Shown in pieces: positions 1 through 10,034 of a DNA stretch of 10,034 bases. This stretch comes from a virus, in the UHGV virus genome UHGV-0306824. One strand, given 5' to 3'. Positions within the stretch are counted from its first letter, which is position 1. Each line of letters opens with the position of its first letter. Made by a program: the position numbers and the translations under genes. Below the pieces are notes generated by a model. The model was not told where the DNA came from, made no database searches, and was given only the letters and a program-made list of their open reading frames with translations.

Positions 1-183
1 GCGCGTACAAGCCGCTATATCACTGACACGACAAAAGAGCGTTATCACCAGTGCCAGAACGTGAATTGCAGCGCCACGTTCATCACTTATGAGTCGGTAC
101 AGAGATACATCGTGAAGCCTGGAGAAGTCCACGCCGTGAGGCCGCACCCGTTGCCGTCAGGGCAGCAAATTATGTGGATGTAA
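1..183 (+). CDS. ogr: Ogr-type zinc-finger late-gene transcription activator, C-terminal 60 codons (5' end lies outside the window)
   Basis: Frame 1 reads ARTSRYITDTTKERYHQCQNVNCSATFITYESVQRYIVKPGEVHAVRPHPLPSGQQIMWM then TAA at 181-183. This matches my recollection of the C-terminal part of the 72-aa P2 Ogr, including the second Cys pair (CQNVNC). The overlapping 71-aa minus-strand ORF (87..302) has no comparable signature. Confidence 0.85.
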   Translation, partial: ARTSRYITDTTKERYHQCQNVNCSATFITYESVQRYIVKPGEVHAVRPHPLPSGQQIMWM

Positions 184-192
184 TTACAAACA

Positions 193-222
193 GGAAGCCC
201 CTCAGTCGAGGGGCTTTTTTGT
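193..222. terminator. Intrinsic terminator hairpin between convergent ogr (+) and D (-)
   Basis: AAGCCCCTC (195-203), loop AGTC, GAGGGGCTT (208-216), then a T-run 217-220. It lies 12 nt after the ogr stop and about 30 nt beyond the D stop (253-255). On the minus strand the hairpin is followed by the weaker tract CCTGTTTGT. Confidence 0.55.
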
Positions 223-252
223 CTTATAAAACAAACAGATAAAATAAAAACA

Positions 253-1416
253 TCACTCATCATCTTCTGTTTCGTACTCCACATCAGAAAGCCTGACCTC
301 AAGCTCTAAGGACGTCGTGAAGCCGCTATTATTCAGAAAATGTGTCACCTTAGTGATTGTCCAGTCCTGCTCGTCTATGACGCGCTTAAAGCCTGACACT
401 CTGACCGGTGTTTCCGTGTAAATATCAGCACGACCAGTGGCAAGGCTGATGGAGAACTCCGCAACGCCCCGTTGCAGTTTATCCCACTTCGCCTGAGCGG
501 CGCGCATGGCCTGCGCTTTCGTGGCATATACCGTGGTCAGGGCAAAAACGTTGTCAGCTTCACCGGCCATGTATTCACCTTCGCGCGCTTCCGGTACTTT
601 TGGCGCTTTCTTCTGCGTGACTGGTTTCGCTTTCGGGTGCTCCAGTGCGCGCAGGTGTTTCTCTTTCTTTTTGCGTTTCAGTTTTACCTTCTGCTTTTGC
701 GGCTTCGGGTCTTTGGTGTGTAACCACTTTGCCGTTACGCCGGTATAGGCTCCACGGTCAGCAATCGCAAAATGATGGCGGTCGCCGTCGCTGCGGGTTA
801 TGGTGACCTGCGGGATTTTTTTACCGCTGGCCGTCACCCCCTGCCCCGCTTTGAGAAACAACAGTTTTCCCATTTTTACCGACACCTCACCGCCGTTGCG
901 TTCTGCAAGACGGGTCAGGAATTTCGCATCAGACTCCTGCGACTGGTCGATGTGCGGGATTTTAATTCCGGCCAGTGACGGAGCGACACTGGCTTCCAGC
1001 CTGTTACGGGAGGCTATCGCCTCAACAATCGCACCGAGCGTGGTGTCATGCCAGGAGCCTTCACGGCGGGAATTGAGCGTCCCGCGGAAATCTGCACTCC
1101 GGGCGCGGATGGTGACCACATCCGGCGCGCCCCGGTGTTCAACCTCATCAACGGTGAATTTCCCTTTGCATACCAGGGCAAAACCTTTCCAGCCGATATA
1201 CACCGTCAGGACAGCGCCACGAACCGGCAACCCGACCTGCCCGTCGGCATCGTTCAGTTCAATATCAAGCTGGTCAGCCTCAAAGCCCCGGTTATCCGTC
1301 AGGGTCATGCTCATCAGACGGTCGCTGATATTGCCGGTAATATCCCTGCTGTCGAGCATCAGCATGTAATCCGGCGTCAGCGTACTACCTGCATCAAATG
1401 TCAGCGCGTCCAGCAT
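253..1416 (-). CDS. D: P2 gpD-family tail protein (late control gene D)
   Basis: 387-aa ORF, last gene of the FI-FII-E-T-U-D block and the same length I recall for P2 gpD. Its ATG (1414-1416) overlaps the U stop by one nucleotide (TAATG), indicating translational coupling. It contains a Lys-rich linker at about aa 235-275. Confidence 0.88.
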   Translation of the reverse strand: MLDALTFDAGSTLTPDYMLMLDSRDITGNISDRLMSMTLTDNRGFEADQLDIELNDADGQVGLPVRGAVLTVYIGWKGFALVCKGKFTVDEVEHRGAPDVVTIRARSADFRGTLNSRREGSWHDTTLGAIVEAIASRNRLEASVAPSLAGIKIPHIDQSQESDAKFLTRLAERNGGEVSVKMGKLLFLKAGQGVTASGKKIPQVTITRSDGDRHHFAIADRGAYTGVTAKWLHTKDPKPQKQKVKLKRKKKEKHLRALEHPKAKPVTQKKAPKVPEAREGEYMAGEADNVFALTTVYATKAQAMRAAQAKWDKLQRGVAEFSISLATGRADIYTETPVRVSGFKRVIDEQDWTITKVTHFLNNSGFTTSLELEVRLSDVEYETEDDE

Positions 1417-1895
1417 TATCCCGCCCCCGTCATACCCGTGAATCTGGTCGCCATACTGCCAGCCTTACCGATGAGCGATTCCGCCTGTTTACCGATATCG
1501 CCATAAAGCGCGGCCAGTGATTCATCCACGCGGGTGAGCGACAACGTAAAATCAATTTTCCGGGGTGTGCCGTCTGCAAAGAAAATACTCCCTGTTTCAC
1601 TCACCCTGCTGATGACATACATGCCGTAAATCATGCCGGTGCCATCCAGCAACGGCCACGCCCGGCCTTCCTCTGCCATCAGCCTGAGCGTGGTCATCGT
1701 CAGCTTCCCGCCGGTCAGTTCGGGATAAAGCACGCCGGCAAGCGTCATGTTTTCCTCACCCACACCGAGAAACTGAAAGGCATCCCGTTTACCGATACGG
1801 GGATTTGACGGCCAGCGATAATCTGATTCGCGCTGCATGGTCTGGTGTGGCAGCGTCTGGCGCATAAAAACAAACATACCTAACGCGAGCATCAT
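1416..1895 (-). CDS. U: P2 gpU-family tail protein
   Basis: 159-aa ORF between T and D in the canonical P2 order; the length matches gpU as I recall it. Its stop overlaps the D start. Confidence 0.88.
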   Translation of the reverse strand: MMLALGMFVFMRQTLPHQTMQRESDYRWPSNPRIGKRDAFQFLGVGEENMTLAGVLYPELTGGKLTMTTLRLMAEEGRAWPLLDGTGMIYGMYVISRVSETGSIFFADGTPRKIDFTLSLTRVDESLAALYGDIGKQAESLIGKAGSMATRFTGMTGAG

Positions 1896-1909
1896 TTTTC
1901 GTCACCTCC

Positions 1910-4357
1910 TTAACCGTCATGCATCATGCTGGCACGGGCGCGCGCACGTTTATCCCGCTCGTATTTTTCGAGCGCATCCTGTAACTGGCGGTCGAGCTGT
2001 GTCCCCGGCGCAGTACCACCCGTCAGGCTGATGTGATATTCGTTTTTACTCTGGTCTACATAAGAGCGGCCAGCCGGTGCCGTGACCGGCTGATAAGCCT
2101 GATAACCTGCATAAGAGCTGGTCGCCGGAATATAACCACCGGTGCCATACGTGGCGGCATGAGTCCTTGCGGCGGTCTGGTCAAGTGTGTCTGACTCTTT
2201 GTTGATAACACCGAGTTTTTCCAGTACCCAGTCAATACCGCTGCGCAGTTTGTTGAACGCATTAAGCGGCAGCCTCAGCGCGTCAGCCAGTGCCTGCCCG
2301 AACATGACCCCCGTGTCACGGCAACTGTTCAGGGTGTCCTGAGTGGCTTTGACCGGGACAATCAGGTTTTTAAACCACTGCCACGCGGCCTGTAACTTTT
2401 CACCCAGCCAGTCAAACACCGGTTTCAGTGGCGTGAACAGCTCCCCCACCGGCGCAAATGCCGCTTTCAGCCCTTCAACCACACCGCCAAAGAATGCGCT
2501 GACAGGCTCCCAGTATTTACGGATAAGCAACGCCCCGGCGACAATGGCGGCCACCACAGCCACAACCGGCCAGCTAATCGCCCCGATGGCCGTCATAACG
2601 GCACTACCAACCGTCGTGAAGATTGCCCCCATTGCGCCTGCTGCCGCGATGATGGCATTGATGCCAGTGATAACCGGCCAGGCTACAAGACCAATTGCAC
2701 CGATGATGCCAATAAGCGCCAGCGCGCCACCGGCAATGATGCCAATGGTTGACGCCAGTGATTTGTTTTTCTGGATCCAGCCGTCGAGTTTTAACACATA
2801 CTTTGTGGCCGTCTGTGTGAGCTTACGCAGTGCGCCTTCCTGCTGGTCAAACAGGTCTGTCCCCACCGCCTCATAAGCGGACTGAAACTCCTTAAAGTCA
2901 CCGCCGAGGTTGTCCTGCATGATATTTACCAGCTCGGCGGTCTTCCCGTCTGAGGCTTTAAACTCAGCGGTCAGTTTGTCCAGCTTTCCGGTTGAGGCGG
3001 CAGTCATCAGCACGGCGGCGGCTGAGCTGGCCTCCTCCCCGAAAATGGTTTTCATGTATTCAGCCTGCTGGGCAGTACCGAGCCGGTTTTTCTCAAAACT
3101 GGCCTGCATTTCTTTCAGAATGGTAAATACTGGTCGGGTATTCCCCTTACTGTCTGAGGTTTTCACGCCAAGCTCTTTGAGTGCATCCCATGCTTTTCCC
3201 GTCGGTGCCTGCAGGCGACTTAACACGGCACGGCTTCCCGTCCCCGCCATTGAGCCTGTGATTTTTGCATCATGCAGCGCCCCGACCATTGCGGCGGTTT
3301 CTTCAATGCTGACACCGGCATTTTTTGCCACTGGTGCGGCATAGGTCAGCGCATCGCTCATGCCGTCAAAATCAGCGGCGGTTTTGTTCATCGTCATGGA
3401 GAGAACATCCCCGATATGAGCGACCTTATCGTTTGAAAGCTGAAAGGCGGATTTCATCCCCATCAGCAGGGCGGCGTTTTCTTCCATCGTGCGGCGGTTC
3501 GCCAGTGCCATATTCAGCGTGACCGGCGTTGCCGCCTGAATGGCATCAACATCCCCACCGGCTTTCGCAATGATAATCTGTGCACCGGCTGCATCATCTG
3601 CCGAGGCGGCGGTGTTGTCGCCGAGCTGGCGCGCCTGCTTGCGGAGCGCGGTCATTTCGGCGGAGTCTTTTGCCACTCCGAGCACGGCCTGCAATTCTGA
3701 GTTTTTCTGCGCAAACTCATAACCGGGCATCAGCAACTTAACTCCGGCCATCGTTCCCGCCGCCGCAATCCCCACACCGGCAGCGCCCACTGAGGCCATA
3801 TTTCCGGCCAGTTCCTTGCCTGCCTGATAACGCTGTTTTACTGCGTTAAGTTTTGCCTGTTGCGCACTGACACGAGCCAGCGCGTCACGCTGACGGTTAA
3901 GCTGTGCGGTGGTTTCACTGATACGGTTTTTCAGTCCCTGCTCATCATGTGCAAGATTGCGGGTATTAATTCCCACAGCGGCCAGTTCCCGCTGCTGGCG
4001 TTTAATGGAATCTGTCAGGCGGTTATATTTCGCCTGTAAGTCCTCCGCCGCACGCTTTGCGGATTCCAGCACTTTCGCCTGAGCACGGGTCGGACGTTCG
4101 GTATTTTTAAACTGTGTGGCAAGGGCTTCGGCCTCCTGCCGTGCCTTTTCAAGTGCATGACCAGTCACGGCGAGCTGTGCACTGGTCTTGCGGAATCCCT
4201 CAATACGGGATGCGTGACCGTTCAGCTCGCGCAGTGATTTTTGTGTTTCCCGGATATCCCCCGACAGCGACCTGCTCGCTGTACGGATGGATTTAAACGG
4301 GCGGGATGCCTGGTCAACAGCCCTGAGCAATACCTGTAATTTTACATTGTTACTCAT
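1910..4357 (-). CDS. T: Tail tape measure protein (P2 gpT-like)
   Basis: 815-aa ORF. The N-terminal half is coiled-coil-like and rich in A/Q/R/K/E; a long Gly/Ala/Ile-rich hydrophobic segment sits mid-protein (IGIIAGGALALIGIIGAIGLVAWPVITG...), as is typical of tape measure proteins. It lies directly downstream of E/E', and its ATG (4355-4357) overlaps the E' stop. Confidence 0.9.
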   Translation of the reverse strand: MSNNVKLQVLLRAVDQASRPFKSIRTASRSLSGDIRETQKSLRELNGHASRIEGFRKTSAQLAVTGHALEKARQEAEALATQFKNTERPTRAQAKVLESAKRAAEDLQAKYNRLTDSIKRQQRELAAVGINTRNLAHDEQGLKNRISETTAQLNRQRDALARVSAQQAKLNAVKQRYQAGKELAGNMASVGAAGVGIAAAGTMAGVKLLMPGYEFAQKNSELQAVLGVAKDSAEMTALRKQARQLGDNTAASADDAAGAQIIIAKAGGDVDAIQAATPVTLNMALANRRTMEENAALLMGMKSAFQLSNDKVAHIGDVLSMTMNKTAADFDGMSDALTYAAPVAKNAGVSIEETAAMVGALHDAKITGSMAGTGSRAVLSRLQAPTGKAWDALKELGVKTSDSKGNTRPVFTILKEMQASFEKNRLGTAQQAEYMKTIFGEEASSAAAVLMTAASTGKLDKLTAEFKASDGKTAELVNIMQDNLGGDFKEFQSAYEAVGTDLFDQQEGALRKLTQTATKYVLKLDGWIQKNKSLASTIGIIAGGALALIGIIGAIGLVAWPVITGINAIIAAAGAMGAIFTTVGSAVMTAIGAISWPVVAVVAAIVAGALLIRKYWEPVSAFFGGVVEGLKAAFAPVGELFTPLKPVFDWLGEKLQAAWQWFKNLIVPVKATQDTLNSCRDTGVMFGQALADALRLPLNAFNKLRSGIDWVLEKLGVINKESDTLDQTAARTHAATYGTGGYIPATSSYAGYQAYQPVTAPAGRSYVDQSKNEYHISLTGGTAPGTQLDRQLQDALEKYERDKRARARASMMHDG

Positions 4358-4777
4358 TCGTGTTTCCGCTTCGCCGGAGTGCCTTTTCGCGCCATGTGAT
4401 GAGTTCGGTCAGGCTCATGGGATACAGTTCTGATGGCGGCCAGTGAAATATCACTGCCACATCCGCCATCAGGTCATCGACCGAGAGATTTTTCGGAAAC
4501 GTTACTGCACCGAGTTCGGCGACAAAAAACCGACCACCTTACCGGCCAGCGCCACAAGGTCAGGCAGTTCCAGCGCGGCGACCTCCTGCTCGGTCAGCAT
4601 CGGTGCCGTCATGCGCGGCAGTACCTTAATCAGTGCATCGACTTCGGAGTTTGCAACCGCAGCCAGACTGACACCGCGCAGCGTCCCCGCACTGGGTTTC
4701 ATCAGCGTGACCTGTTCGATAACCTGCTCACCACGCTTGACCGGATTGTCCAGGGTAATCACATTTTCTTTGTTCAT
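4350..4777 (-). CDS. Tail assembly chaperone E+E' made by -1 programmed ribosomal frameshift (predicted 142 aa)
   Basis: After the minus-strand heptamer T TTT TTG, the -1 frame stays open for 57 codons (VAELGAVTFPKNLSVDDLMADVAVIFHWPPSELYPMSLTELITWREKALRRSGNTNE) and ends at TAA 4350-4352, which overlaps the T start codon. The arrangement parallels lambda G/GT and P2 E/E+E'. Confidence 0.7.
4502..4777 (-). CDS. E: Tail assembly chaperone E (P2 gpE-like), zero-frame product
   Basis: 91-aa ORF between FII and T, ending ...KVVGFLSPNSVQ*. It contains the slippery heptamer seven codons before its stop. Confidence 0.85.
   Translation of the reverse strand: MNKENVITLDNPVKRGEQVIEQVTLMKPSAGTLRGVSLAAVANSEVDALIKVLPRMTAPMLTEQEVAALELPDLVALAGKVVGFLSPNSVQ
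4523..4529 (-). other. -1 frameshift slippery heptamer T TTT TTG (plus strand reads caaaaaa)
   Basis: Read directly: the zero-frame codons are GGT TTT TTG (G-F-L of ...VVGFL). This is a classical X XXY YYZ site, placed where tail-chaperone frameshifts occur. Confidence 0.7.
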
Positions 4778-4805
4778 GGTTTTCTCACTTCTGAATCAGG
4801 GTTAA

Positions 4806-4826
4806 CCGGTCAGCCAGGCTGACCGG
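4806..4826 (-). other. Intercistronic stem-loop between FII stop and E start
   Basis: Perfect 10-bp inverted repeat CCGGTCAGCC a GGCTGACCGG, 8 nt past the FII stop (4834-4836) and about 50 nt before the E ATG. No U-tract follows on the minus strand, so it is not a canonical intrinsic terminator. Confidence 0.4.
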
Positions 4827-4833
4827 ATGAAAA

Positions 4834-5352
4834 TTACAGGCCGATATTTCGGCGGTGTTGCTCCAGCCGGTCGACGCCGTTCACCTTCTCAATCATGTTG
4901 ATGGTGTCGATTTCGACCAGCTCCTTACCGTCCATCGTCAGCCGGAAATAGGTGCAGACCACGGAGATTTTCGACTCGGTGTCTTCTCCCTGTTTACCCT
5001 CGCCGGTGTCGATTTCTTTCTGACGTCCACGCATGACCACTTCGACGGCCACCGTTTCGCCGGTATCGTCGCGCTGGTAAGAGCCTGCAAAACGAATCGG
5101 CACGGCATCCACACCGGTTGAGGCGTAAAGCTCCCAGATAACCGAATCCGGGAAGCCCCCGAGCGACCACTCCATTGACAGCGCATCGTCATCAAGGCCG
5201 AGGTCTACCGGTGCGCTGCCGTTCATCCCCGCACCGCGATAGTTTTCGAGCTTACGGGTCAGTTTTGGCAGCGTGACGGACTTTGCAACGCCCTGATAGC
5301 TGTAGCCGTTCAGAAAGACGTTCATTAACTTGAGTTTGCGCGGCATTGCCAT
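4834..5352 (-). CDS. FII: Major tail tube protein (P2 gpFII-like)
   Basis: 172-aa ORF immediately downstream of the sheath gene; the 12-nt spacer contains GGAG. Length matches P2 FII as I recall it. Confidence 0.9.
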   Translation of the reverse strand: MAMPRKLKLMNVFLNGYSYQGVAKSVTLPKLTRKLENYRGAGMNGSAPVDLGLDDDALSMEWSLGGFPDSVIWELYASTGVDAVPIRFAGSYQRDDTGETVAVEVVMRGRQKEIDTGEGKQGEDTESKISVVCTYFRLTMDGKELVEIDTINMIEKVNGVDRLEQHRRNIGL

Positions 5353-5364
5353 CGGTCAGGCTCC

Positions 5365-6555
5365 TTAATTGCTGTTAACCGAGGTGACCAGATTTGCCAG
5401 GTATTTATCGGTAATACGCTGGCGCAGGGTCAGGTTTTCGAGAGGAGGCACCGGGGTATAGTCGTAGTCGATATACAGTTTTCCGGCCTTGAGGGTTTCC
5501 GCATCGTTGGATTCTTCGCTGAACCAGCAGGTCGCATCCACGATATAGCCGTTTGTTTTCAGCTCACGGAATTTGGCATTGATGCCGTCAACGATGTCGC
5601 GAATCAGCGTTGCGGTGATGGGCTTGTCCACCGCCCACATGTGCGCCTCAGCCATCGTGTCGGCCAGCACCTGCGCGGTGCGGGTGTAGTTTTCAAAGAG
5701 GAACAGCGGGTCATCAGAGCAGGTACGGTTACCCCAGAAGCGGAAACCGTCGCGGCGAATCAGCGTAGTGACGCCTGACTCATTAAGCAGGTCAGCATCG
5801 GTGCCGGACTCCTGCAAATCCCAGAATACAGAGGCGCTGATGCCGGTAACACCGTTCACCCCGACATTGGACAGCGTTTTATGCCAGCCCTGCTCCTGGT
5901 CGATTTTGGCACGCAGCCCCAGTGCACGGGCGGTGGCATACGCGGTGGCGGTGGTACTGGTGACCGTATCCCATGCGAGGAAATCCGGCCAGATGACCAT
6001 CAGCTCACGCTGGCTGAAATTCTGGCGGTAAGCTTTCACCTCGGAAATGGTTTTACAGCCCCATGCGCTGATATACCCGAAAGCGCGCAGCTTCTGACAG
6101 ACTGATGCCAGTGCAACAGCCACCTCTTTGGTGTCCAGTCCCGGCACGCCGAGAATACGCGGTTTAACACCGGTTACCGACTCCGCCGCCAGCAGGGCTT
6201 TCAGTCCGGTGTACTGACCGTTTTCGTCGGTGGTGCCGATGATATTGGAAACGGTCTGCGCGAGTTTCGTTTCTTCGTCGTCGCCGGTGCCGTCTTCCAC
6301 GCGCACAACAACGGTGACCGGTTTTGACTGGTCAGCGATGGCCTGTAACGACGCCGCCAGCGTGCCTTTTTTACCGGCCTTTGCAATTGCGCTCTGCACA
6401 TTAGTAATCAGCACAGGTTTATTGAGGGGGAAGGTTTCCGCATCCGCATCGCTGGCCGTGCAGACCATGCCGACAATGGCAGTGGATACGGTGGAAATGA
6501 CGCGGGTGCCGTCGTTAATCTCCAGCACCTGCACGCCGTGATGATAGTCACTCAT
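5365..6555 (-). CDS. FI: Contractile tail sheath protein (P2 gpFI-like)
   Basis: 396-aa ORF, first gene of the block, with GGAG about 8 nt upstream of its ATG. Length matches P2 FI as I recall it. Confidence 0.9.
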   Translation of the reverse strand: MSDYHHGVQVLEINDGTRVISTVSTAIVGMVCTASDADAETFPLNKPVLITNVQSAIAKAGKKGTLAASLQAIADQSKPVTVVVRVEDGTGDDEETKLAQTVSNIIGTTDENGQYTGLKALLAAESVTGVKPRILGVPGLDTKEVAVALASVCQKLRAFGYISAWGCKTISEVKAYRQNFSQRELMVIWPDFLAWDTVTSTTATAYATARALGLRAKIDQEQGWHKTLSNVGVNGVTGISASVFWDLQESGTDADLLNESGVTTLIRRDGFRFWGNRTCSDDPLFLFENYTRTAQVLADTMAEAHMWAVDKPITATLIRDIVDGINAKFRELKTNGYIVDATCWFSEESNDAETLKAGKLYIDYDYTPVPPLENLTLRQRITDKYLANLVTSVNSN

Positions 6556-6663
6556 CCGTTTAACTCCGTGGTTAATGGGTGAGTGGTATTTTCAGTTGTG
6601 CCGGAGATGTCAGGCTATTTGTCCCGGTTGGCTAATCGACAGCACAACCACCGGTAAAGAAAA
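6556..6663 (-). promoter_or_regulatory. Putative late promoter and RBS region for the FI operon (expected to be Ogr-dependent)
   Basis: Only the position is supported: about 100 nt between the upstream terminator hairpin and the FI start. I searched for a perfect TGT-N12-ACA activator-site dyad and found none. Confidence 0.3.
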
Positions 6664-6682
6664 GGCGGGCAATTTGCCCGCC
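6650..6682 (-). terminator. Intrinsic terminator (minus-strand orientation) upstream of the FI promoter region
   Basis: GGCGGGCAA t TTGCCCGCC palindrome at 6664-6682. On the minus strand it is followed by TTTTCTTTA (reverse complement of 6650-6663). On the + strand there is no good T-tract. Confidence 0.5.
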
Positions 6683-6881
6683 TGTCCTGATTTGTACTCA
6701 CTCATTTTCCGACTGACAATTTACATAGCCCAAACGCTATCAAATCTGACAGTCTGCTTTGGGTAAACTGATAATGGGCAGAGCTTTGTATGGCTAACTT
6801 CAGCATGATACCTTACAGTCAAGCTGACAAAAGGCGGAATGATTATTCGTTGATACACATCCTCCTGTAAGGAAACAAAGC

Positions 6882-7652
6882 ATGTATAAAGAACTTATAG
6901 AACAGAGACTGAATGAGGCAAAAGCCGCCAGAGCTGCGCTGAGCAAGATTAATGGTGTAATTGTCGAAAAAACACACAACCCTGACCGCGGACTGTATCT
7001 CGTTAATTATGCCAATTTACTTATGAACAGGCAGATAGACATCTTCGATGATGCGCTTCTCCTCCTCGAAAACGAACGATACCAAAGCGCTTGTATTGTT
7101 AGCCGAGGAATGATTGAAACTCATGCCTTCTCACGACTCTTAAACAAGAAAGTAGAGAAAATTTTGACTACCCAAAATGGACACGCAAGTGTAGATAACG
7201 CTATCGAAGTTATATTGAACTTTACGAATAGTTCTCGATTTAAAAAGTCAGAGCAAGAAAAGATTCAGAAAGAAGTATTTGACCCGAACGACTACATGTT
7301 TACTGAGGAGGCTAAATATCGTTTTGAAAACCTACTTGCTGTCAGTATGCATGTGATGACTGCTTTACGCGAACTCTATAAAGATGAGATGAAGCAGACT
7401 AATCAGATGGAAAGTGATTTTGAACTGACTTATGACATACTTAGCGAATATGTTCATCCTTCACAAACGAGCATCTACCACTACTACACACCTGAAACCC
7501 ACTTAGTTCCTACTTCGGTTGGTAATATTCATACTTATGTGCATGCTCAGCTACAATGTGTGAGAGCGCTACTTTTCATATTAGAAGCAAAGAGTCAACA
7601 TTATTGGTCTACACAGTTAGCAAATGAGATGACCAAACGAGCTAAAGAGTAA
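6882..7652 (+). CDS. Hypothetical protein, 256 aa; cargo gene at the G-FI moron position (P2 Z/fun-type site)
   Basis: Uninterrupted ORF with AAGGA 8 nt before its ATG. It is visibly more AT-rich than the flanking tail genes, opposite in orientation to the late operon, and predicted mostly helical. No motif I can assign, apart from an R-x5-H stretch (SRGMIETH). Confidence 0.75.
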   Translation: MYKELIEQRLNEAKAARAALSKINGVIVEKTHNPDRGLYLVNYANLLMNRQIDIFDDALLLLENERYQSACIVSRGMIETHAFSRLLNKKVEKILTTQNGHASVDNAIEVILNFTNSSRFKKSEQEKIQKEVFDPNDYMFTEEAKYRFENLLAVSMHVMTALRELYKDEMKQTNQMESDFELTYDILSEYVHPSQTSIYHYYTPETHLVPTSVGNIHTYVHAQLQCVRALLFILEAKSQHYWSTQLANEMTKRAKE

Positions 7653-7767
7653 GGCCTAAGCCCTGCAATGTGTTTATTTGAAAAATATTTCAATTTTTTC
7701 TTTGTATGCTGTAAATGACCTGAGTCCCTCTGACCAGAGAGCCTTGATGTTATCAATGTCCGCTCCT

Positions 7768-7900
7768 GGCACAGAGCGGACTGTCAGATTAGGGGTTACT
7801 CTGTGTTATAGATATGTGAGCTCACACCAGAGCTTATACAGCTTATTGTGGCATTTCCGGCCATTCAGGATTTGCAGGATCCACACGACTGACCAGAACG
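7768..7900. repeat. R1 copy a: 133 bp comprising the last 19 codons of a minus-strand tfa plus 75 bp of its 3' flank
   Basis: About 92% identical by eye (roughly 10 mismatches) to 8456-8588 in the same orientation. Confidence 0.8.
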
Positions 7901-7997
7901 CTGTAGCGTTCCCATGATTCCAGTCGGCTACGCTCCTCATCTGTTGCCATGTTCAGTCTGACCGCGCGCTCCAGCGGCAAAATCACGGATTCGGCAT
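7843..7997 (-). pseudogene. Tail fibre assembly protein (P2 gpG / Tfa family), 3' remnant only
   Basis: Minus strand reads [50 protein letters not shown], a Tfa-family C-terminus. The frame runs only 57 codons back to an in-frame TGA (rc of 8017-8019) with no start. Homology to the + strand tfa copy stops abruptly at about 7997. Confidence 0.7.
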
Positions 7998-7998
7998 T

Positions 7999-8106
7999 AT
8001 TGTTCAGGATACCGGCTCAAACTCTGCCGATAGCATTGGTGGCATATATTACAGACCGGTGCAGAAATACATTAACGGGACATGGTATAACGTAGCGCAG
8101 GTATAA
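7999..8106 (+). pseudogene. Possible 3' fragment of a tail-fibre (H/Stf-like) gene, directly upstream of the + strand tfa
   Basis: Frame reads ...[36 protein letters not shown] with its stop 3 nt before the tfa ATG (TAA ttt ATG). That is the usual fibre-chaperone spacing, but the assignment rests on context only. Confidence 0.35.
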
Positions 8107-8250
8107 TTTATGCAGCATTTAAAAAATATTACGGCGGGTAATCCAAAAACGGTTGAACAATATCAATTGACAAAGAATTTTGATGTTGTCTGGTTTTTTT
8201 CAGAAGATGGTAAGAACTGGTACGAAGAACAAAAGTATTTTGCTGATGAC

Positions 8251-8367
8251 ACGATAAAAATAGCGTACGACAAAGATAATATCATCCACTATGTGGAAAA
8301 GGATGTGACAGCTATCAGACCGGATGGATTAAGTGTTGTTGAAGTGGCGGATATTACTGCTAACCGA
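8251..8367 (+). repeat. tfa-internal 117-bp direct repeat, copy 1
   Basis: 115 of 117 identical to 8586-8702; the mismatches are A/G at two positions (gacaaAgat vs gacaaGgat; catccActat vs catccGctat). Confidence 0.85.
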
Positions 8368-8455
8368 GCTGGAGCTGGTTGTGTTTAATGAAAAATTACA
8401 ATTTTAATACGTCCGCTGTACACCCTTAGCTGCCGTTAGCTTAACGTCCGCAACA
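8368..8455 (+). repeat. R2 copy 1: 88-bp element at the breakpoint inside tfa
   Basis: GCTGGAGCTGGTTGTGTTTAATGAAAAATTACAATTTTAATACGTCCGCTGTACACCCTTAGCTGCCGTTAGCTTAACGTCCGCAACA, identical to 9130-9217. Confidence 0.85.
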
Positions 8456-8588
8456 GGCACAGAGCGGACTGTCAGATTAGGCTTTACTCTGTACCATAGA
8501 TATGTAAGCTCACACCAGAGTTCATACAACTTATTGCGGCATTTCCGGCCATTCAGGATTTGCAGGATCCACACGACTGACCAGAACG
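8456..8588. repeat. R1 copy b: inverted tfa 3' end (last 18 codons, ..[18 protein letters not shown]) plus 3' flank, lying inside the + strand tfa
   Basis: About 92% identical to 7768-7900. It encodes on the minus strand exactly the C-terminal residues that the + strand tfa lacks. Confidence 0.8.
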
Positions 8589-8702
8589 ATAAAAATAGCG
8601 TACGACAAGGATAATATCATCCGCTATGTGGAAAAGGATGTGACAGCTATCAGACCGGATGGATTAAGTGTTGTTGAAGTGGCGGATATTACTGCTAACC
8701 GA
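8586..8702 (+). repeat. tfa-internal 117-bp direct repeat, copy 2
   Basis: See copy 1; it shares ACG (8586-8588) with the end of R1b. Confidence 0.85.
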
Positions 8703-9129
8703 CGGGCGGACATTTCAGGGGGCTGGATGTTTAAGGACGGAAAAGTGATTAAACGCATTTATACGGCAGAGGAATTGCAGCAGCAGGCAGAAAACCGGAA
8801 AGCCAGACTTCTTGCAGATGCTGAATCCGTGATTTTGCCGCTGGAGCGCGCGGTCAGACTGAACATGGCAACAGAGGAGGAGCGCACACGGCTGGAGGCT
8901 TGGGAACGCTACAGCGTTCTGGTCAGTCGTGTGAATTAATAGTCTTTATTAATCATAATATTTAAATAATTAGGCTGCTTTTTTAATTGAACTATAAAGA
9001 ATAAGCAACCCACTCAATAAGATACACTTTATTTATTCTGGTGCAATATTAAAAACGCATAATAAGTGTCATTTTCATTGCTCGTGAATGCCATTACTCT
9101 TAAATCGTGATCCGGTTCAAAATTTAGAG

Positions 9130-9217
9130 GCTGGAGCTGGTTGTGTTTAATGAAAAATTACAATTTTAATACGTCCGCTGTACACCCTTAGCTGCCGTTA
9201 GCTTAACGTCCGCAACA
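9130..9217 (+). repeat. R2 copy 2: 88-bp element abutting the 5' end of the DarT-like frame
   Basis: Identical to 8368-8455. Its last 11 nt supply the in-frame codons R-P-Q just before the DarT-like sequence; an in-frame TAA sits at 9204-9206. Confidence 0.85.
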
Positions 9218-9218
9218 T

Positions 9219-9545
9219 GTTTATCATTTTACATACATTGATAATCTTGAGGGAATTATAAAAAATGGATTACTTAGTACAAATTTAAAATCAAATAGAG
9301 GCATTATTCATAAAGATATAGCAAATAATGAAATACAACACCGTCGTAGTGAAATGAGGGTCACTTGTGGTCCAGGTGGAGTGGTCCATGATTATGTGCC
9401 TTTTTACTTCACTAAAAGATCTCCCATGTTACTTAATGTTATTAAGAAAAAAAACGTAGATCAAGAAGGAATTATATATCTTGCGATACCAATAGAGGCG
9501 ATAGAAGATAAATCAGTAGTTTTTTCAAATTCTTACCACATTTAA
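9219..9545 (+). pseudogene. DarT-like DNA ADP-ribosyltransferase toxin (DUF4433-like), N-terminal part; no start codon and truncated at a rearrangement junction
   Basis: Frame reads VYHFTYIDNLEGIIKNGLLSTNLKSNRGIIHKDIANNEIQHRRSEMRVTCGPGGVVHDYVPFYFTKRSPMLLNVIKKKNVDQEGIIYLAIPIEAIEDKSVVFSNS then SYHI*. The motifs YHxT..NL, GGxxHDYVPFYF and SPML match what I recall of the DarT family. There is no ATG/GTG/TTG between the upstream TAA (9204) and the conserved N-terminus; the first ATG is at 9354. Confidence 0.55.
9418..9534 (+). repeat. R3 copy a: 117-bp perfect direct repeat inside the DarT-like frame
   Basis: Identical by eye to 9685-9801 (GATCTCCCATGTTACTTAATG...TTTTTTCAAATTCTT). Confidence 0.85.
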
Positions 9546-9605
9546 ATCATGAAAGTAATGATGATCAAATGATCTAGAATCACAACGAACATCAAAATTA
9601 TTAAA

Positions 9606-9685
9606 CCCATATTTTTTCAATAGCTGTGCAACATGCGTTTTCACGCAAAGATTCCAAACAACAATAAATGAAAAATTATTGAAGG
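9606..9685. repeat. Inverted copy (reverse complement) of 9955-10034, the DarT-like 3' coding segment
   Basis: Perfect 80-bp inverted repeat; I checked 9611-9660 base by base against 9980-10029. The pairing reaches the window edge, so the repeat may extend to 9535 on this side. Confidence 0.85.
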
Positions 9686-9801
9686 ATCTCCCATGTTACT
9701 TAATGTTATTAAGAAAAAAAACGTAGATCAAGAAGGAATTATATATCTTGCGATACCAATAGAGGCGATAGAAGATAAATCAGTAGTTTTTTCAAATTCT
9801 T
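9685..9801 (+). repeat. R3 copy b
   Basis: See R3 copy a. Confidence 0.85.
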
Positions 9802-10034
9802 CTGCAAATACTTTAACGCCACCAACATTTTACTCTAATGCTGATGATTTAAATAAGCTAAATTGGGATGCAATTGACAGTAGAGTGTGGATCCCAAAGA
9901 CCGAAGGAGTAAAACAGCAAAAAATGGCAGAGTTGCTTATTCATGATGAAATTCCCTTCAATAATTTTTCATTTATTGTTGTTTGGAATCTTTGCGTGAA
10001 AACGCATGTTGCACAGCTATTGAAAAAATATGGG
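9693..10034 (+). CDS. DarT-like toxin, C-terminal portion; frame open to the window end (3' partial, lacks the N-terminal region)
   Basis: From ATG 9693: MLLNVIKKKNVDQEGIIYLAIPIEAIEDKSVVFSNSSANTLTPPTFYSNADDLNKLNWDAIDSRVWIPKTEGVKQQKMAELLIHDEIPFNNFSFIVVWNLCVKTHVAQLLKKYG, 114 codons with no stop. The ..KMAELLIHD.. helix fits the Glu-containing catalytic motif of ADP-ribosyltransferases. It is absent from the ORF track only because it runs off the edge. Confidence 0.5.
   Translation, partial: MLLNVIKKKNVDQEGIIYLAIPIEAIEDKSVVFSNSSANTLTPPTFYSNADDLNKLNWDAIDSRVWIPKTEGVKQQKMAELLIHDEIPFNNFSFIVVWNLCVKTHVAQLLKKYG
9955..10034. repeat. Right arm of the inverted repeat (coding orientation of the DarT-like gene)
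   Basis: Reverse complement of 9606-9685. Confidence 0.85.

Follow-up and report, generated by a model that had tools for sequence, protein, structure and literature searches.

The window, that is, the whole 10,034-nt stretch of viral DNA that we analysed (UHGV-0306824), is colinear with canonical P2-like prophages over positions 223-7992 only, where it follows the order D-U-T-E-FII-FI, a DUF5677 cargo gene and the 3' end of G. Measured against the full order ogr-D-U-T-E-FII-FI, cargo slot, G, H, the ogr gene is flipped, G (Caudo_TAP) occurs in three fragments and H is represented by 35 codons. Sequence from two P2-like E. coli prophage lineages is present: type A, in which the order is FI-DUF5677-G-H, and type B, in which it is H-G-DarT-DarG-FI. 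On the segment map, window 223-7997 runs colinearly with L011 3342-11116, and the piece at 1-222 corresponds to L011 3254-3033 in reverse complement. The ORFs of the body are intact, and at least 80% of the 223-7992 body is covered in 1,536 genomes. An Rfam scan of the whole window gave no match. The features are as follows.

1-222, plus strand: flipped type A piece with the 3' part of ogr (codons ending at 183) and terminator; PF04606 Ogr_Delta; 3 mismatches in 222 nt
223-7992, minus strand: type A P2-like body; 98-98.7% identity to L001, L004 and L011
253-1416, minus strand: D
1416-1895, minus strand: U
1910-4357, minus strand: T
4502-4777, minus strand: E
4834-5352, minus strand: FII
5365-6555, minus strand: FI
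6882-7652, plus strand: DUF5677 cargo gene
7843-7992, minus strand: last 49-50 codons of tfa G_A, at the end of the type A body
7993-8367, plus strand: flipped type A piece with the last 35 codons and stop of H_A (7999-8106) and G_A codons 1-86 (8110-8367); 99.7% to L004
8368-8588, minus strand: flipped type B piece with G_B-DarT intergenic DNA (8368-8530) and the last 58 nt of G_B (8531-8588); 221/221 identical
8589-8933, plus strand: type B tfa G_B codons 49-163 (L002 8267-8611); PF02413, E=2e-27; 348/348
8934-9217, minus strand: flipped type B intergenic DNA (L002 9009-8726)
9218-9534, plus strand: DarT codons ~11-115 (L002 9092-9408); PF14487, E=5e-29
9535-9685, minus strand: flipped DarT piece (L002 9712-9562)
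9686-10034, plus strand: DarT codons ~78-193 (L002 9293-9641); PF14487, E=7e-20; runs off the window end

Tail-fibre and DarT pieces

The initial annotation described a scrambled tail-fibre locus at 7768-8939. Its tfa fragments are real and lie about where it placed them, but the zigzag of pieces is wider and reaches beyond the fibre genes, running on to 10034 through DarT and also taking in the flipped ogr at 1-222. The proposed Tfa homology was borne out by profile search, which found PF02413 at 7843-7995 (E=6e-15) and at 8589-8939 (E=2e-27). The partial minus-strand copy, given as 57 codons at 7843-7997, does encode the C-terminus (50 residues) of a Tfa of the P2 G type, although its length is 49-50 codons; likewise, the sharp join beside it exists, but the breakpoint is 7992/7993 and not 7997/7998. 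At position 7993 all 10 type A references have A, and the window carries the acceptor's G. The plus-strand end of 35 codons was correctly recognized as that of a fibre-like gene; it belongs to fibre gene H, for which G is the chaperone. The piece containing it is L004 11601-11232 reversed, and the piece that follows (8368-8588) is L002 8813-8593.

The tfa at 8110-8939, thought to be full-length and interrupted, starts at 8110, carries Tfa sequence at 8589-8939 and is indeed interrupted; full-length it is not. It comprises type A G codons 1-86, a 221-nt flipped insert and type B G codons 49-163, with codons 48-86 doubled and the final 12 codons absent, and its TAA (8937-8939) is a false stop supplied by flipped intergenic DNA. 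A third, inverted tfa 3' end had been placed inside it at 8456-8588. The last 58 nt of tfa are found there, but the remainder of that piece is flipped G-DarT intergenic DNA. The D/E, S/T and S/A differences noted between the C-terminal blocks correspond exactly to those that distinguish the alleles G_A and G_B, whose proteins are 95% identical; the two are alleles of one chaperone and not a U/U' pair.

The window has the DarT domain in three overlapping fragments only, and the start codon region is not among them (L002 9012-9091, 80 nt, is missing from the window); DarG does not lie within the window. The window therefore holds no intact DarT ORF with a macrodomain DarG, the composition of a DarTG toxin-antitoxin or defence system; the intact reference in L002 and L017 consists of a 444-aa DarT and a 371-aa macro protein. 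The chimeric ORFs at 8110-8388 and 9354-9545 are not on record.

Relatives of the window are orderly at this site. Ten contigs encode the identical DUF5677 protein, and in each of them FI-DUF5677-G(175 aa)-H is intact and colinear; the B-type records are all colinear for H-G-DarT-DarG-FI. The initial annotation had cautioned that the locus would be a misassembly if the true sequence had H-G intact and colinear, and G-H is intact and colinear in every relative examined. The one naturally decayed relative encountered, L021, has apparently lost genes while keeping colinearity, as judged from gene calls only. A DarT (x2) annotation in strain S1-SRB-02-B, considered as a similar rearrangement, is a colinear frameshift. 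Between G and FI lies the P2 cargo site, the fun(Z) defence hotspot, which DUF5677 and DarT-DarG occupy as alternatives; the H-G-fun(Z)-FI region of P2 is the second of the defence hotspots that P2-like phages carry (Vassallo et al. 2022, PMC9519451).

Geometry of the junctions

Eight junctions separate the pieces, each given here with the jump along the reference and the microhomology.

J0, 222/223: 309 nt; 1 nt
J1, 7992/7993: 485 nt; 1 nt (or 6)
J2, 8367/8368: ~433 nt; 0 nt
J3, ~8588: 326 nt; 3 nt
J4, ~8933: 398 nt; 2 nt
J5, 9217/9218: 366 nt; 0 nt
J6, 9534/9535: 304 nt; 1 nt
J7, ~9685: 269 nt; 1 nt

The strand switches at all eight, an outcome with a probability of (1/2)^8 = 0.004 if direct and inverted joins are assumed to be equally likely, and the jumps span about 269-491 nt. 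Mean microhomology is 1.1-1.75 nt, depending on how J1 is scored, against a chance mean of 0.72 nt, and is ambiguous as evidence of polymerase template switching. No motif is common to the eight junctions, and matches to the hix/gix-like core AAACCNNGGTTT are at chance level (8 found, 5.4 expected). The joins cut ogr, G, H, DarT and intergenic DNA alike. J2 is also a change of lineage, from type A to type B, which requires either mixed templates or a mosaic source.

The pieces are 150-375 nt long and tile the canonical H-G-intergenic-DarT region. Because they overlap on the canonical map, they generate direct and inverted duplicates (117, 88, 117 and 80 nt, in addition to the missing 80 nt). 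Thus, the 88-nt block 8368-8455 recurs at 9130-9217, the piece 9686-10034 repeats 117 nt of 9418-9534, and 9955-10034 is matched by a perfect inverted repeat of 80 nt within 9535-9685. These internal duplicates are fully identical (88/88, 117/117 and 80/80), and over 1,671 nt no difference separates the type B pieces from the prophage of E. coli 30EVA1 (100% identity); there has therefore been no divergence since the joins formed. Three repeats are far beyond chance: an inverted repeat of 119 nt at 92% (7879-7997 and 8818-8936) and direct repeats of 146 nt at 90% (7755-7900 and 8443-8588) and 117 nt at 98% (8251-8367 and 8586-8702).

Among 5,426 complete E. coli genomes, not one spans J0, J1, J2+J3 or J4-J7. 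Exact words of 38-43 nt were also scanned for four junctions, each against some collections: J1 had 0 matches in GTDB representatives, IMG/VR and JGI metagenomes, as had J3 in GTDB representatives, J5 in IMG/VR and J6 in JGI metagenomes.

Origin of the joins

The best reading of the locus is that it is neither a working nor a decayed genetic device. We infer, with a probability of roughly 0.7, that a normal P2-like prophage stretch of 7.8 kb is flanked on either side by a non-biological fold-back chimera. From 7992/7993 onwards, and once at 222/223, the sequence repeatedly halts, jumps ~270-490 nt on the canonical map and resumes on the opposite strand, the joins presumably having been made outside the cell. 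Candidate sources are strand-switching or fold-back chimeras arising in amplification or library preparation, and reads or mates mis-joined at weakly supported ends of the assembled sequence. The sample would have contained two P2-like prophages of nearly identical sequence. Beneath the joins, the real biology is ordinary.

Inverted amplification chimeras alternate in strand, are dominated by the inverted type and show a distance peak at 250-300 nt (PMC9984789). The window agrees in having opposite-strand neighbours at 8/8 junctions and distances of 269-491 nt, such chimeras mostly lying within 5 kb. The overlap of 5-8 nt that is typical of phi29 MDA chimeras was not found: the junctions show 0-3 nt (6 being possible at J1), and the fit to the classic MDA mechanism is therefore partial. 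An error in joining reads or mates fits the near-blunt joins better than classic MDA does. The pieces are error-free, so accurate reads or polishing would have been needed. One idea is that they are concatenated read pairs sorted by position, which fits the convergent geometry of 7/8 joins as well as their near-blunt ends. Other sources were rejected: de Bruijn-graph mis-joins and Unicycler-type path errors depend on k-mers of 20 nt or more in common, which the joins do not have; for missed-adapter SMRTbell or nanopore template-complement reads, the fold-backs lack common end points; and random ligation of fragments does not suit pieces that are local and alternate strictly in strand.

The identical tape-measure protein was found only in one 4.7-kb Logan contig (SRR11412778, L003), which matches window 1831-6581 with 2 mismatches (6346 and 6460), both within ~235 nt of its end at 6581, immediately before the cargo site. 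This breakpoint is as expected from two co-resident P2-like prophages that share a collapsed repeat, and hints at such a pair.

An annotator who trusted the sequence as it stands would record a new or decayed invertible fibre system and a tail operon without its fibre, and both calls would be wrong. Strict strand alternation, jumps of a few hundred nucleotides, identical overlapping duplicates, the cutting of unrelated genes and junctions confined to one record make up an artefact signature, knowledge of which averts false calls of structure and of gene decay.

That the zigzag arose in vivo is unlikely. A single replication-based event with many template switches (MMBIR/FoSTeS-like, or serial tandem-inversion duplications that deletions then remodelled) would, in one or two resident P2-like prophages, have scrambled the G-H/DarT hotspot together with ogr and left a dead fibre locus. 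Alternating orientation, local jumps, templated duplications and 0-3 nt of microhomology are expected here too; the identical duplicates fit a very recent event, and the intact body ORFs indicate otherwise high-quality sequence. Against this, eight switches fall within ~2.3 kb and none in the 7.8 kb between, and their clustering at two separate places (ogr and G/DarT) means that several independent rare events would be needed. To our knowledge, E. coli has no efficient pathway for homology-free end joining. J2 unites lineages A and B without any homology. Nor is any junction shared with the 5,426 complete genomes or the other scanned collections, and the gene-depleted L021 seems, from its gene calls, to have decayed without such scrambling. 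Events of the FoSTeS/MMBIR type typically comprise 1-3 switches and turn up where amplification is selected for; we know of no precedent for eight switches at two prophage sites with an inter-prophage join. It is tempting to speculate, though more doubtful still, that the zigzag is real DNA from a single catastrophic eight-switch replication event, a bacterial analogue of chromoanasynthesis, that hit co-resident P2-like prophages beside their defence hotspot. Stalled replication at the DarT locus may have provoked it, a proposal made because DarT ADP-ribosylates single-stranded DNA. If it did arise in the cell, the zigzag would rank among the few documented cases of multi-switch replicative rearrangement in prophages of bacteria.

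Homologous recombination between two inverted P2-like prophages in one chromosome, giving the head-to-head junction at ~7992, is very improbable. The initial annotation had raised recombination between two P2-like prophages and was right that two lineages contribute; the 119-nt inverted repeat of tfa 3' ends and the Logan contig breakpoint also speak for such a pair. Such an exchange would, however, yield colinear hybrid genes, not a tfa 3' end set against a flipped H 3' end. J1 connects non-homologous positions 485 nt apart, both of type A, with 1 nt of certain microhomology, and the other seven junctions and the duplications are left unexplained. Simple homologous recombination is excluded: the joins lie at non-homologous positions, share 0-3 nt and change strand every time.

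A decayed invertible tail-fibre cassette of the Gin/Cin/Pin/Min type, once switching two fibre/chaperone sets, one of the two origins that the initial annotation had proposed (on the model of Mu G, Pin or Min), is hardly credible, despite two tfa alleles in opposite orientation beside a fibre 3' end and genuine cassettes at exactly the same position in sister P2-like prophages with identical gpD (L016, L019, L020 and L024): the window has no invertase and no crossover site, and the tfa pieces stand head-to-head, not tail-to-tail. The L019 invertase gave a best tblastn E value of 1.3 against the window, no ORF in 7653-10034 exceeds 103 aa, and the slot adjoining FI that holds the invertase in cassette phages is held by DUF5677. 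The crossover site TTCTCSCAAACCWASGTWT, of which L016, L019 and L024 each have two inverted copies, does not occur in the window, even if up to 3 mismatches are allowed. Instead of a constant fibre 5' part with two alternative 3' end/chaperone sets, the window has one H 3' end of 35 codons, and G_A and G_B offer alleles of a single chaperone. Site-specific inversion conserves content, as the clean inversion between L019 and L024 (our positive control) illustrates, so overlapping duplications cannot result from it, and identical joins occur in DarT and ogr, which are unrelated to fibres.

Comparison with known systems

The window resembles the invertible fibre segments (Mu G, P1 C, e14 P and p15B Min, and those of the sister P2-like prophages) in the position of the locus between the fibre gene and FI and in having Tfa-family sequences in both orientations. 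It differs from the real cassettes, which carry a 197-aa serine invertase next to FI, two inverted crossover sites of ~26 bp and a constant fibre 5' part with two variable-end/chaperone sets arranged tail-to-tail. With FoSTeS/MMBIR and the tandem inversion duplications of Salmonella it shares local segments that are templated, alternate in orientation and meet with little or no homology.

The sequences from which the locus is built are exactly those of the P2 hotspot region; the likeness lies in the tail operon FI-FII-E-T-U-D-ogr with a G-type Tfa, and in the AT-rich alternative cargo, DUF5677 or DarT-DarG, between G and FI. In all relatives this region is colinear with intact genes, whereas G, H, DarT and ogr of the window are cut, flipped and partly duplicated. 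Compared with the inverted chimeras of amplification or library preparation, the window is unusual in that its junctions cluster at two ends of a long clean stretch and are not evenly spread, and in that one join bridges two prophage lineages. It nevertheless shares with them a strand switch at every junction, pieces that lie within a few hundred nucleotides of each other, artificial direct and inverted repeats, and several junctions in succession, which here were absent from each public collection searched for them.

The tail operon and its cargo slot

The ORFs of the window, and its comparison to complete genomes of E. coli, identify the tail operon of a P2-like (Peduovirus) prophage lying on the minus strand. 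At least 80% of window 223-7997 is carried colinearly by 1,536 of 5,426 complete E. coli genomes.

Genes of the tail operon and cargo slot
253-1416, minus: D
1416-1895, minus: U
1910-4357, minus: T
4502-4777, minus: E
4834-5352, minus: FII
5365-6555, minus: FI
6882-7652, plus (opposite to the tail genes): AT-rich DUF5677 gene (PF18928)

The DUF5677 gene, with a GC content of 0.38-0.42 against about 0.56 for the tail operon, occupies the fun(Z) cargo slot of P2, between the tail fibre assembly (tfa) gene G and FI; in P2-like phages this slot has been described as a second hotspot enriched in defence genes (PMC9519451). PADLOC run on the window gave no match for the gene, which we regard as candidate anti-phage cargo. 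In the contig collection the identical protein is recorded for 212 blocks; in the 10 contigs listed it occupies the same slot, all ten with an intact, colinear FI-DUF5677-G-H-I-J-W-V order (G of 175 aa, fibre protein H of 728-749 aa). We term this lineage type A.

In the type B lineage (H-G-DarT-DarG-FI), the cargo (9063-11509 in E. coli 30EVA1; 1930-4376 in L017, another DarTG-type record) consists of DarT (444 aa, with a weak HD-domain match at its C terminus), then a 371-aa macrodomain protein. Beyond the shared tfa 3' end, query 8834-9785 was matched by only three of the 5,426 genomes (30EVA1, LR-28 and S1-SRB-02-B), and all DarTG-type records examined are colinear. Judged on gene calls only, CP057580.1 (1-11500) looks like a DarTG-type P2-like prophage that has decayed naturally: its early genes lead directly into a shortened fibre gene, and none of the genes from sheath to tape measure is called. 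Its gene order remains colinear, unlike the zigzag of the window.

Among indexed contigs, the identical tape-measure protein is found in one only, a Logan contig (SRR11412778) corresponding to window 1831-6581 and ending just short of the cargo slot. Its two mismatches, at 6346 and 6460, lie within about 235 nt of its 6581 end. This suggests two co-resident P2-like prophages with a collapsed common repeat of about 4.7 kb.

A zigzag between two prophage lineages

The window was aligned to annotated prophages of type A (E. coli E47 plus ten further contigs, L004 and L011 among those of this type) and type B (30EVA1), giving nine pieces separated by junctions J0 to J7.

Pieces of the window, in order, with their sources
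1-222: L011 3254 to 3033 (ogr 3' part and terminator), flipped
223-7992: type A, colinear
7993-8367: type A H 3' end and G 5' half, flipped (99.7% to L004 11601-11232)
8368-8588: 30EVA1 8813 to 8593, flipped
8589-8933: 30EVA1 8267 to 8611, forward
8934-9217: 30EVA1 9009 to 8726, flipped
9218-9534: 30EVA1 9092 to 9408, forward
9535-9685: 30EVA1 9712 to 9562, flipped
9686-10034: 30EVA1 9293 to 9641, forward

The strand switches at all eight junctions, with jumps of 269-491 nt along the reference. The pieces tile 30EVA1 8005-9713 with overlaps of 117, 22, 88, 120 and 80 nt and a single 80-nt gap, in which the start of DarT is lost; it is these overlaps that produce the direct and inverted repeats of the window. 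Over 1,671 nt, the type B pieces, six in all, match 30EVA1 at 100% identity, and duplicates within the window are mutually identical (88/88, 117/117 and 80/80). Thus, an 88-nt G-DarT intergenic block, without a match in Rfam, stands twice in direct orientation (8368-8455 and 9130-9217, 100% identical) because two flipped pieces overlap. The zigzag also reaches beyond the fibre genes: DarT is split into three overlapping fragments (PF14487, PADLOC DarT) and, at the opposite window end, J0 is a junction of the same kind, leaving the ogr 3' part and terminator inverted relative to D.

The initial annotation described here a shattered locus of partial tfa copies. Profile search bears out the tfa pieces, with Caudo_TAP (PF02413) homology at 7843-7995 (minus, E=6e-15) and 8589-8939 (plus, E=2e-27), and the last 35 codons of a fibre gene do lie at 7999-8106 (plus) before a tfa start at 8110. 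The repeats likewise exist (inverted, 119 nt, 92%; direct, 146 nt, 90%; direct, 117 nt, 98%). The D/E, S/T and S/A differences are exactly D144E, S148T and S152A between the type A and type B alleles of G, whose proteins are 95% identical; the two mismatches in 117 nt between 8251-8367 and 8586-8702 are also allelic, one copy being of type A and the other of type B.

The anatomy requires revision, however. The minus-strand G fragment has 49-50 codons rather than 57, and the breakpoint falls at 7992/7993 rather than about 7997/7998: position 7993 is A in 10/10 type A references, whereas in the window it is G, as in the flipped acceptor sequence. The supposedly full-length, interrupted tfa consists of G codons 1-86, then 221 nt of inserted sequence, then G codons 49-163; this plus-strand gene lacks its last 12 codons and takes its stop codon from flipped intergenic DNA. 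Of the proposed third, inverted tfa 3' end, 58 nt (8531-8588) are indeed tfa and the remainder is flipped intergenic DNA.

Origin of the joins

Microhomology at J0 to J7 is 1, 1 (or 6), 0, 3, 2, 0, 1 and 1 nt against a chance mean of 0.72, the 6 nt at J1 requiring a G at 7993 in the allele of the source itself; the joins are near-blunt. No motif common to the eight was found, and hix/gix-like core matches are at chance level (8 observed, 5.4 expected). In dedicated queries, none of the 5,426 complete E. coli genomes spanned J0, J1, J2+J3 or J4-J7. Exact 38-43-mers for four junctions, each scanned against some large collections, gave no matches for J1 in GTDB representatives, IMG/VR or JGI metagenomes, for J3 in GTDB representatives, for J5 in IMG/VR or for J6 in JGI metagenomes. 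No record identical to either of two chimeric ORFs from the window was found.

A strand switch at every join, jumps of a few hundred nucleotides and identical overlapping duplicates, together with cuts in unrelated genes, a clustering of the junctions on either side of a long undisturbed stretch, a mixture of two near-identical prophages and junctions seen in no other record, argue that the joins were made outside the cell (probability about 0.7). The 'shattered locus' is most likely not a biological feature, and its component elements (P2 tail operon, G/H fibre pair, fun(Z)-slot cargo and DarTG) are already known and ordinary.

A genuine rearrangement with multiple template switches is unlikely; the locus would become notable only with read-level proof of the junctions, as a bacterial example of replicative rearrangement of unusual complexity. 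Far less probable is homologous recombination between two P2-like prophages, one of the origins first proposed, since J1 links non-homologous points 485 nt apart inside one lineage and the remaining junctions are all left unaccounted for.

The other proposal, a decayed invertible fibre cassette, could be set against a positive control. Identical-gpD look-up yielded sister P2-like prophages with a genuine cassette (L016, L019, L020 and L024, about 1400-4800 in each), ordered fibre, tfa (plus), tfa' (minus), alternative fibre end (minus), 197-aa resolvase (PF00239 and HTH_7) and FI. L019 and L024 represent opposite inversion states, with colinear flanks and an internal segment (2237-4144) cleanly inverted without duplication; two inverted copies of the crossover site TTCTCSCAAACCWASGTWT bound the segment in each of L016, L019 and L024. 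The window, by contrast, has no match to this site with up to 3 mismatches allowed, no invertase by tblastn (E>1), no ORF above 103 aa after 7652, and DUF5677 in the invertase's place next to FI. With every testable defining feature failing, the cassette reading retains next to no probability.

Joins made outside the cell may have arisen as inverted amplification chimeras, or from reads or mates mis-joined at weakly supported sequence ends. Among amplification chimeras the inverted type is dominant, with a distance peak at 250-300 nt and a typical junction overlap of 5-8 nt (PMC9984789). The window carries the same signature of orientation and distance; its near-blunt joins, however, agree less well with this mechanism, given that typical overlap, and better with mis-joined reads or mates.
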